The notes beneath the pieces were generated by a model that saw nothing but the letters and a program-made list of their open reading frames with translations, was not told where the DNA came from and did no database searches. A stretch of DNA of 22,598 bases from Escherichia coli (GTDB lineage Bacteria > Pseudomonadota > Gammaproteobacteria > Enterobacterales > Enterobacteriaceae). The translations under genes and the position numbers were made by a program. The DNA lies in the NCBI RefSeq assembly GCF_003334815.1, contig NZ_QOWO01000052.1. One strand, given 5' to 3'. This document shows, piece by piece, positions 624 to 1,266 of this stretch (position 1 is its first letter; each line of letters begins with the position of its first letter).

Positions 624-734
624 AAGTCCTCCGCTTGTCTTATTGGCATAATAGCATCTTTAAAAGTACTCTTAAAAGTGCTTGTGTTGAGAAAAACATC
701 AGAACAGGTGAGGTATGGCTCTTTCCGACATCGC

Positions 735-780
735 CTTAAAACGCTCTGTAACGCGTTCTGAGCGTTTTTTCCCGTTTCGT
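735..780. repeat. ~45-bp imperfect direct repeat, copy 1 (internally palindromic)
   Basis: cttaaaacgctctgtaacgcgttctgagcgttttttcccgtttcg is repeated with a few substitutions at 923-967. Confidence 0.5.
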
Positions 781-922
781 TATAGTCAGCTACAGTTTAA
801 CGGTTTTTAACGCCGCTCAACGCTTTTTAGCGGCCTTGTTGCTGTGATCTGTTGCCATGATCCGGATAGGAGTTCAATCTTGATCAAAATTTCCTCAAGG
901 CAACGACTGTTTTGTAAATACC

Positions 923-967
923 CTCTAAAACGCGCTGTATCGCATTCTGAGCGATTTTTTCGATTTC
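923..967. repeat. ~45-bp imperfect direct repeat, copy 2
   Basis: ctctaaaacgcgctgtatcgcattctgagcgattttttcgatttc; lies between the TA promoter side and the replication origin. Confidence 0.5.
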
Positions 968-1266
968 ACATGGTTTTCCTCATGGTTACATCGAACAAAG
1001 CGTTAGAAAGCGATTCAGGGCTTCTCAGTGAAAGATCCAAAAAGGATCAATCAACGGATCGTATGATCTGAACTCTTCTGGTTTTGAGAAAGGAGACACC
1101 GCTCGCCGCAGCCGAACGACCGAGCGTAGCGAGTTAGTGAGCGAGGAAGCGGAACAGCACAGGGATAACATCAGGCAATTACGCGCAGTGGTTAAAAAGC
1201 GAGCATATTGTTTTTATGTGTGGTTATCTTGGTTCAGAGTGATCTGTCCTCTGGGTTTACGCAAAG

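Follow-up and report, generated by a model that had tools for sequence, protein, structure and literature searches.

The closest described counterparts of the locus presented here are signals that act on single-stranded DNA (ssDNA), namely the single-strand initiation (ssi) sites and ssDNA promoters represented by the primosome assembly site (pas) of the phiX174 type, the G sites of the G4 type and the Frpo/ssi elements of F and ColIb-P9. Hairpins of the Frpo class have been collected by requiring a folding energy below −75 kcal/mol (PMC12672017), and leading regions of plasmids have been described in which the genes take the transferred strand as template (PMC11541004). Two further systems offer points of comparison: the boxA sites, with the consensus GYTCTTTAANA (bioRxiv 10.1101/091223), and the injection-stop (iss) region of phage T5, where DnaA boxes have been described and a mechanism acting through them has been proposed (bioRxiv 10.1101/866236). 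Here we analyse a pair of direct repeats in a 22,598-nt stretch of Escherichia coli DNA (contig NZ_QOWO01000052.1, assembly GCF_003334815.1; the window in what follows) that belongs to an IncX1 conjugative plasmid of the MOBP type. The repeats lie between the promoter of the toxin–antitoxin (TA) genes stbDE and the replication origin, and they appear to be the conserved 5′ arms ('cores') of two tandem, diverged non-coding modules of ~189 bp. The core recurs in many unrelated phages, and we tentatively read the modules as a hairpin signal on the strand that enters the recipient first.

The two repeats and their core

A repeat search returns the two copies as 42-nt sequences that are 83% identical and start 189 nt apart. 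The initial annotation, made from the sequence of the window alone, had drawn them as ~45-bp direct repeats at 735–780 and 923–967, ~190 bp from each other, which is correct to within 2–3 nt. Bases 640–1100 are 100% identical to E. coli NZ_CP024290 and match 1432 plasmid records, nearly all of Enterobacteriaceae source. The 25-nt core that opens each copy consists of three phased ~10-nt units (CTCTAAAACG-CTCTGTAACG-CATTCTAAGCG), with the consensus (C)TCTAAAACG-CKCTGTAWCG-CRTTCTRAGCG, and a degenerate pattern derived for it has two matches in the 22.6-kb window against 0.00 expected from 100 dinucleotide shuffles. Its variable positions are spaced by 6, 4 and 5 nt and are thus not 3-periodic, and the open reading frames (ORFs) at 715–810 and 844–1071, including the one that runs through a repeat, are not kept in homologues. 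A protein-coding reading was therefore rejected, in line with the initial annotation, which had seen no convincing ORF here.

The core falls into no iteron-type repeat family, being unlike the pi iterons (TGAAAGGTGGATGGGTACGCA), and there is no DnaA box (TTATCCACA) in 700–1080. Rfam 15 returned nothing relevant at E values up to 10 in bases 1–3000 of the window and no gathering-score match in 16 related loci. Our literature search met the core sequence in no relevant context, and the IncX and T5 literature found does not describe it. By-eye comparison with known sites was equally unrewarding: the core fitted neither sigma-E, sigma-28, sigma-32 or sigma-54 promoters, nor the sites of LexA, CRP/CRP-S, Cra, PurR, IHF, Fis, PhoP, PmrA, CpxR or TorR, nor Ter/Tus, attC, the RfaH ops element or Tn402/IS66 ends.

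The dyad symmetry and T-run that the initial annotation reported are present in both copies, and the symmetry is real but weak. In copy 1 the dyad AAAACGCTC/GAGCGTTTT forms an A/T-ended stem of 9 bp with a 13-nt loop (−11.2 kcal/mol; z −1.7 as RNA, −2.7 as DNA), while the 5-bp dyad of copy 2 (−5.4 kcal/mol, z +0.3) is not above shuffles. The A/T difference between the 5′ arms of the two copies is matched in the 3′ arms (AACGC/GCGTT versus ATCGC/GCGAT). At 939–955 and 750–766, the 5-bp stem encloses a 7-nt loop of the form N-U-U-C-U-R-A, with UUUUAA in an IncX4 plasmid (L002:2515-2531; L numbers denote individual loci). Apart from position 32, we take this loop to match the anticodon loops of tRNA-Arg(UCU) and tRNA-Lys(UUU).

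A tandem module with an inverted partner

Each core is followed first by an imperfect palindrome and then by a cluster of GATC sites, and this order is found in two diverged tandem copies. The GATC clusters lie at the same offset after both repeats (Table 1), which indicates that a unit of ~189 bp was duplicated. In module 2 the palindrome arises from a diverged inverted core at 1003–1030, which aligns locally to the core consensus with a score of 28 (p about 0.005 by shuffling). The corresponding match in module 1, at 812–834, is weak (score 18.5, p about 0.12). It coincides with the shorter related motif that the initial annotation had placed at 816–834; the motif is there, one base off (815–833, minus strand CCGCTAAAAAGCGTTGAGCGG), and is best read as an inverted core that lacks one 10-nt unit.

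Folding of both strands, a check suggested with the initial annotation, singles out the ~90 nt at 932–1021 in module 2. As RNA this segment reaches −33.7 kcal/mol (z −3.4) and as DNA −19.6 kcal/mol (z −3.8), in each case with none of 200 shuffles as good, and the minus strand is slightly weaker. The corresponding hairpin of IncX4 has a z of −2.9.

GATC sites number 12 in the ~550 bp of 846–1393, against a window average of 2.6 per kb, and are arranged in three clusters (846–885, 1034–1068 and 1357–1393) plus one site at 1241. Such clustering is a Dam/SeqA-type origin feature. Beyond module 2, bases 1098–1154 are 96.5% identical over 57 nt to ColE1 1308–1364 (E 8e-23). We take this ColE1 segment to be the PriA (n′) site of ColE1/pBR322, with GGAAGCGGAA, beside the ColE1 DnaA box; by homology, 1098–1154 would be a PriA site as well. 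A homologue is also present in IncX3 and IncX4 and is missing from R6K. The partner at 1003–1030, the equal GATC offsets, the ColE1-type pas and the sharing of the core with phages all go beyond the initial annotation.

Conservation of the modules within IncX plasmids

Module 2 has the same position, left of the DnaA box, in IncX1, IncX2 (R6K), IncX3 and IncX4. Among IncX4 plasmids, L002 carries module 2 only and lacks any TA system, and L003 and L004 carry both modules beside a different TA system. IncX3 has a diverged core (TTAAAAACGAGCTGTATGACGTTCTAAGCG), partner, GATC cluster, pas and DnaA box in the same order. R6K shows a reduced form, in which a two-unit core (TTCTAAAACGCCTTCTAAGG) and its partner (GGCTCTAAGGGCTTCTCAGTG) stand directly left of the DnaA box. 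From this pattern across IncX1–X4, module 2 is ancestral in the left flank of the IncX gamma-origin and module 1 its duplicate. Two loci, L005:2593 and L026:3746, have a single hybrid copy in which the left flank of repeat 1 is joined to the right flank of repeat 2; this shows recombination between the two cores, with deletion of the 189-bp unit.

The long hairpin retains 21 pairs across eight aligned IncX sequences. Where only one side has changed, seven pairs stay G.U on the plus strand, compared with two that are broken. The right arm contains GAAGCGG in L002, L004, L005, L026 and L045, and AAAGCG in the window itself. The hexamer AAGCGG within it is common to n′ sites.

The modules lie on the transferred strand

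The gene order of NZ_CP024290 runs from the type IV secretion system (T4SS) genes through actX (NusG family), the relaxase gene, ddp1, a 325-bp gap, eight small ORFs, a J-domain gene and stbED to the modules and the origin. Left of the modules every gene is carried by the minus strand, and those between oriT and the modules point toward oriT. Within the 325-bp gap, both IncX1 and R6K carry on the plus strand an inverted repeat (GGGCAAACG...CGTTTGCCC) followed by TATCCTG/CATCGCAG (TATCCTG/CATCG). We take TATCCTG/C to be a nick consensus of the MOBP type (YATCCTG/Y, from general knowledge of RP4-type oriTs). Since it is on the plus strand, this is the strand that is transferred, and whatever lies right of oriT enters first. 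The modules are then 4.0–4.2 kb from the nick, and, counted from the start of the leading region, modules and pas together fall at 4.0–4.4 kb. The genes that separate them from oriT are on the minus strand and have the transferred strand as their template, as has been described for leading regions (PMC11541004). On the far side of oriT, actX (L121:12168-12686), a NusG/RfaH-family paralogue upstream of the T4SS operon, is present in all three IncX plasmids inspected (IncX1, R6K and IncX3); the core is unlike the ops element of RfaH.

Occurrence of the core outside IncX plasmids

Since the core is common to IncX origins and many unrelated phages, it appears to be an undescribed and widely shared non-coding signal of ~25 nt. 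We found it, with unrelated flanks, in a 222-kb Enterobacter plasmid (L007), and successive searches of IMG/VR returned it in 9 and then 75 stretches. Representative genomes with a match include Arsenophonus, Phytobacter, Buttiauxella, Haemophilus and Tepidimonas as well as a Kordiimonadales chromosome, although about half of the 26 genome matches resemble chance matches within genes. At a permissive threshold 338 phage records match; among the phage matches listed, 25 of 30 rows have no annotated feature under the match and the other five only a repeat-region annotation. Chromosomal places with the core number 771 in 5426 E. coli genomes, and all three of those inspected lie in prophage-like DNA.

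Families of contexts were drawn from 62 distinct cases, and the statistics of the partner from 35 that are non-redundant. The number of units per core ranges from two to four or more. An inverted partner stands 67–118 nt downstream in 12 of the 35 contexts, compared with one in which it stands upstream.

In T5 (L022, AY543070), the core is at 9352–9376 on the minus strand, within the untranslated injection-stop stretch in the left terminal repeat. A perfect LexA box (CTGTATAWWTATACAG) stands exactly 50 nt before the core, and TAATAT just before it, in 16 distinct T5-like sequences. In T5 itself core and LexA box together span 9352–9426 (minus strand), and a second LexA box is found at 6213–6228. 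The T5 nick site (AA/GCGC, 9748/9749), which we also considered, is only loosely like the AAGCGC of some cores. Another phage family has a LexA-like box overlapping a −10 element. The core is further found in jumbo phages (Asesino-like and Seoulvirus), in rV5-like phages, in a P2-like late operon (L011) whose gap between V and W is filled by the core element, and in enterobacterial prophage-like replicons, where it lies in gene-free regions of 2 kb. Two such regions in E. coli chromosomes look like undescribed integrated iteron replicons: L052:2768-4720 has three 19-nt iterons at 22-bp spacing (4006–4068), with a rep-like gene and a DNA invertase nearby, and L051:1931-4062 carries four copies of cttcttaaccgac at 2300–2345. 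In five phage contexts (second copies), an AGATCTC, which contains a GATC site, lies at +59 (L054) or at +68/+69 (L055, L057, L062 and L069) from the start of the core.

Promoter signals at a fixed distance are scarce. In a sigma-70 scan the mean −10 score was positive nowhere on the plus strand and at a single position on the minus strand, a TAGAAT inside the core that has no consistent −35. In many contexts a TAnnnT hexamer ends 1 nt before the core, but no credible −35 accompanies it in IncX plasmids.

Surrounding genes and origin

The coordinates of all features are collected in Table 1. Between the promoter side of stbD and pir, 1.16 kb hold no annotated gene, and the right part of this stretch is typical of a gamma-type origin. 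The two repeats at its start are 78% identical, and each carries the 13-mer AAGTTATCCACAG, which is also present at T5 6118–6130 and 9509–9521 and at ColE1 1269–1281. Short repeats of the AGTACT/AGTGCT type lie at 660–685, inside the stbDE promoter. Phd/YefM antitoxins use sites of that kind, and by analogy with this family the promoter with its short repeats is likely to be the TA operator region, separate from the 42-nt repeats.

Table 1. Features of the locus, with positions in the window unless another record is named.
Feature	Position	Strand	Basis or remark
stbE/relE	101–382	minus	gene calls, annotation
stbD	372–623	minus	gene calls, annotation
stbDE (Phd/YefM-RelE) promoter	648–685	minus	promoter-like site; −35 at 675–670, −10 at 653–648
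Repeat 1	737–778	plus	core 737–761 (TAAAACGCTCTGTAACGCGTTCTGA), T-run 765–770
Local hairpin of repeat 1	738–746/761–769, or 750–754/762–766	plus	folding
Hairpin GCCGCT...AGCGGC	812–834	plus	minus strand reads as a shortened inverted core, partner of repeat 1 (module 1)
GATC cluster 1	846–885 (sites 846, 859, 882)		+110 to +146 from core 1
Repeat 2	926–967	plus	core 926–950 (TAAAACGCGCTGTATCGCATTCTGA), T-run 955–960
Local hairpin of repeat 2	939–943/951–955	plus	5-bp stem, 7-nt loop, followed by T6; flagged by terminator scan
Long imperfect hairpin of module 2 (926–1030)	932–1021	plus	core arm pairs with inverted partner; apical hairpin ~969–984
Diverged inverted core, partner of repeat 2	1003–1030	minus	plus-strand letters TTAGAAAGCGATTCAGGGCTTCTCAGTG
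GATC cluster 2	1034–1068 (sites 1034, 1045, 1057, 1065)		+109 to +140 from core 2
Homologue of ColE1-type primosome assembly (PriA/n′) site	1098–1154	plus, as cores	70 nt past module 2
Two direct repeats of 37 nt	1256–1331	plus	DnaA box TTATCCACA in each; start of gamma-origin proper
GATC/AT-rich segment of gamma-origin	1352–1398		
Iterons of gamma-origin	1486–1710		
pir	1781–2620		annotation
bis	2641–3483		annotation
oriT inverted repeat and nick consensus	L121:14800-14860 (NZ_CP024290, ~28.84 kb, outside the window); L133:22760-22810 (R6K)	plus	

Possible roles of the modules

The reading that we put first, as a tentative one, is that the modules are a cis-acting single-strand hairpin signal on the transferred strand and that a host factor reads the core. 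They occupy the strand that receives the oriT nick and reaches the recipient first, beside a PriA-type site in the same orientation, and they stand upstream of the leftward stbDE, J-domain and eight-ORF genes. While this strand lacks its complement, after transfer or in the course of replication, the core would pair with its inverted partner into the ~90-nt hairpin, and the hairpin would mark a start or loading point for complementary-strand priming and/or early transcription. The invariant core would be the part bound by the host factor, and such recognition would account for the same core in unrelated phages. We give this reading precedence because the hairpin is significant, one-sided changes in IncX favour plus-strand G.U pairs, modules and pas homologue share the transferred strand, and the site is upstream of the leading-region genes.

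Several observations weigh against the single-strand signal. The R6K version of the long hairpin is no better than shuffles, and module 1 folds better on the minus strand. Across 12 palindromic instances from different families, G.U pairs number 26 on the plus and 58 on the minus strand, with no plus-strand bias, and the minus strand folds equally well or better. RNAalifold finds no consensus structure in 13 T5-like sequences, in which the sequence is kept and the structure is not. Inspection and a position weight matrix scan show no acceptable −35/−10 hexamers rebuilt in either arm of the stem, and the CTG that DnaG needs for a start is no conserved part of the core, being missing from many variants. 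Neither the F leading region nor the complementary-strand origin of G4 (G4 3860–4030) shows any similarity. Finally, virulent double-stranded DNA (dsDNA) phages have no obvious need for such a signal. These facts favour sequence-specific recognition of the core, either as a phased array in duplex DNA or as RNA at the 5′ end of a transcript.

As a duplex array, the core would be two to four helically phased ~10-bp sites (CTCTrwAACG) for a host DNA-binding or architectural protein. Where they converge, such arrays would bend the origin flank or draw it into a loop or, in phages, shut off a promoter that is directed into the core. We consider this rather unlikely. A clear 10-nt periodicity speaks for it: in L020 a perfect CTAAAACGCT occurs twice, L018 has four units and R6K two, and the partner arm of L051 is short by exactly one unit. 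It is sequence rather than structure that is conserved over the 16 T5-like sequences, and there is no overall strand bias. Several contexts are close to origins, with iterons and DnaA boxes in IncX, 22-bp iterons and the rep-like gene in L052, iterons in L051 and the region of T5 in which DnaA boxes have been described (bioRxiv 10.1101/866236). Against these points, the core is not known to fit the consensus of any E. coli factor, the matched arm changes within IncX are not expected of protein half-sites, and the core also occurs between structural genes, as in the V–W gap of L011. The initial annotation had offered binding sites for a replication or partition factor; the fixed place in the IncX gamma-origin flank and the helical phasing of the units agree with this proposal, whereas the lack of resemblance to pi iterons and DnaA boxes does not. 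That phages have the core as well suggests that such a factor would belong to the host and not to the plasmid.

To an RNA element we give a similarly low credence. Plus-strand transcripts would then begin with the core. The product could be a ~40-nt RNA that stops at the local hairpin and U-run, or a leader with a boxA-like anti-Rho element, to which an RNA-binding host factor is recruited so that long untranslated DNA can be transcribed. The T5-like arrangement, with the LexA box 50 nt and TAATAT 5–6 nt before the core, is in keeping with this, as are the LexA-like box over the −10 of family C, the TGTTATAAT found about 50 nt upstream in family A and the TACCCT form of the TAnnnT hexamer next to the core. 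The hairpin and T-run that follow the core in IncX, with their matched arm change, would fit a short terminated RNA, and the unit GCTCTGTAAC resembles boxA and keeps its critical C4. Long untranslated DNA lies downstream, amounting to 1.1 kb in IncX, 2 kb in L051 and L052 and 1.6 kb in T5. However, no usable promoter precedes the core in IncX1, IncX3, IncX4 or R6K, the hairpins are weak and lack an Rfam match or, in the T5-like phages, a consensus structure, and within the core units boxA position 6 is never T and position 11 differs.

It is tempting, if rather speculative, to see in the core, more broadly, a hitherto unrecognised and portable module that a conserved host machine recognises and that conjugative plasmids and T5-like, jumbo, rV5-like and temperate phages have put to use independently. 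In plasmids it would sit on the DNA that enters first, and in T5-like phages on first-step-transfer DNA under LexA control. In one version such a module would be a tandem boxA-like anti-Rho element for long untranslated transcripts. It could also be an anticodon-stem-loop mimic of tRNA-Arg(UCU)/tRNA-Lys(UUU), a decoy for anticodon nucleases.

No plasmid function at all is required if the element is selfish or a relic, that is, a palindrome of ~100–120 bp resembling a (Correia-like) miniature inverted-repeat transposable element (MITE), or its solo ends. This is a rather improbable explanation, although IncX1 shares 29–31 identical nt with unrelated phage-like contigs whose flanks are unrelated too (L007/L008, L014), and the element is mostly free of annotated features, intergenic and found in either orientation relative to the flanking genes. 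Its convergent arms with a variable centre, its several copies per genome, the filled V–W gap of the P2-like operon and the recombination junctions at the cores of L005 and L026 are also what such an element might leave behind. On the other side, a search through W-gene relatives met no empty site or target duplication, all 10 relatives of L011 carrying the element, and we know of no transposase with matching ends. The constant position in four IncX groups and in all T5-like phages suggests that selection has long kept the element in place.

The third suggestion of the initial annotation, terminator-like hairpins, is partly borne out, but intrinsic terminators serving to insulate origin and TA promoter from each other are unlikely to be the explanation. 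Both copies do have a hairpin followed by a T-run, with the matched arm change; copy 2 was picked out by the terminator scan, and the A-run/T-run symmetry of copy 1 would permit bidirectional action. The stems, however, are of 5–9 bp with loops of 7–13 nt, copy 2 is not more stable than shuffles, terminator-like sites are not more numerous than expected by chance, and no plus-strand promoter is evident in IncX; conservation of 25 nt across phages and the inverted partner would also go unexplained. Least probable are operators of a RelB/RelE-type complex, here StbD/StbE (Phd/YefM-RelE), for which proximity alone speaks (repeat 1 is 114 nt upstream of the stbD start codon), because the core is kept without a TA system in IncX4 L002, with another one in L003/L004, and in R6K, IncX3 and virulent phages, and because the stbDE promoter has its own palindromic repeats at 660–685, with the core 60–250 nt beyond its −35.

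Resistance genes, mcr-1 and blaNDM among them, are found on IncX plasmids, and R6K serves as the textbook iteron replicon. If the modules do aid priming or expression on the entering strand, they would add a new class to the establishment signals and offer a point at which transfer could be blocked.

Comparison with known systems

Like ssi sites and ssDNA promoters, module 2 has an imperfect hairpin of ~100 nt on the transferred strand, and the IncX modules lie in the leading region, upstream of genes pointing to oriT and beside a pas homologue; the GAAGCGG in the right arm of most IncX variants recalls the pas of the phiX174 type. Unlike these systems, the modules lack homology to the F leading region or the G4 origin, rebuilt −35/−10 elements and a conserved CTG. 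The module hairpin is also much smaller than those of the Frpo class, and its core occurs in virulent dsDNA phages too.

The left flank of the R6K gamma-origin, with its 'enhancer' and DnaA box 1, is the nearest counterpart by position, as module 2 stands immediately left of the DnaA box, although IncX1 differs in having two full modules, GATC clusters and a pas. The 'enhancer' function is attributed in the literature to the DnaA box. The gamma-origin fragments of pir-dependent vectors presumably start after the core, in which case the core is not needed for vegetative replication, and this would also suit a single-strand signal.

Resemblance to boxA/nut-type sites for Nus factors lies in the unit GCTCTGTAAC, in the position at a transcript 5′ end in several phage families and in the long untranslated DNA that follows. 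The core units (GCTCTGTAACG, GCTCTAAAACG or GCGCTGTATCG) keep C4 but never have T6 (G or A instead), and their position 11 is G; they are moreover arranged in tandem, with no evident promoter in IncX. With the Correia-type MITEs of Neisseria and with enterobacterial repetitive intergenic consensus (ERIC) sequences/intergenic repeat units (IRU), the core element shares a palindrome of ~100–130 bp, conserved arms of ~25 nt, a variable centre, an intergenic location in either orientation and outer ends that both start with TA. It differs in that no target duplication or empty site was seen, in having no known similarity to the ERIC consensus and in being confined to mobile elements rather than chromosomes.

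The iss region of T5 holds the core within conserved, untranslated DNA of its left terminal repeat, near palindromes and DnaA boxes that Davison has described (bioRxiv 10.1101/866236). That analysis deals with the surrounding repeats and DnaA boxes and not with the core motif, and the word 'LexA' has no occurrence in it (bioRxiv 10.1101/866236). The core beside a perfect LexA box thus stands in a region whose mechanism has been a question for 50 years. The interest of the motif lies not in its TA neighbours but in the link that it makes between the origin flank and leading region of IncX plasmids, the injection-stop region of T5 and many other mobile elements; it suggests a common host factor exploited by very different mobile elements, and a single binding partner could inform several fields.

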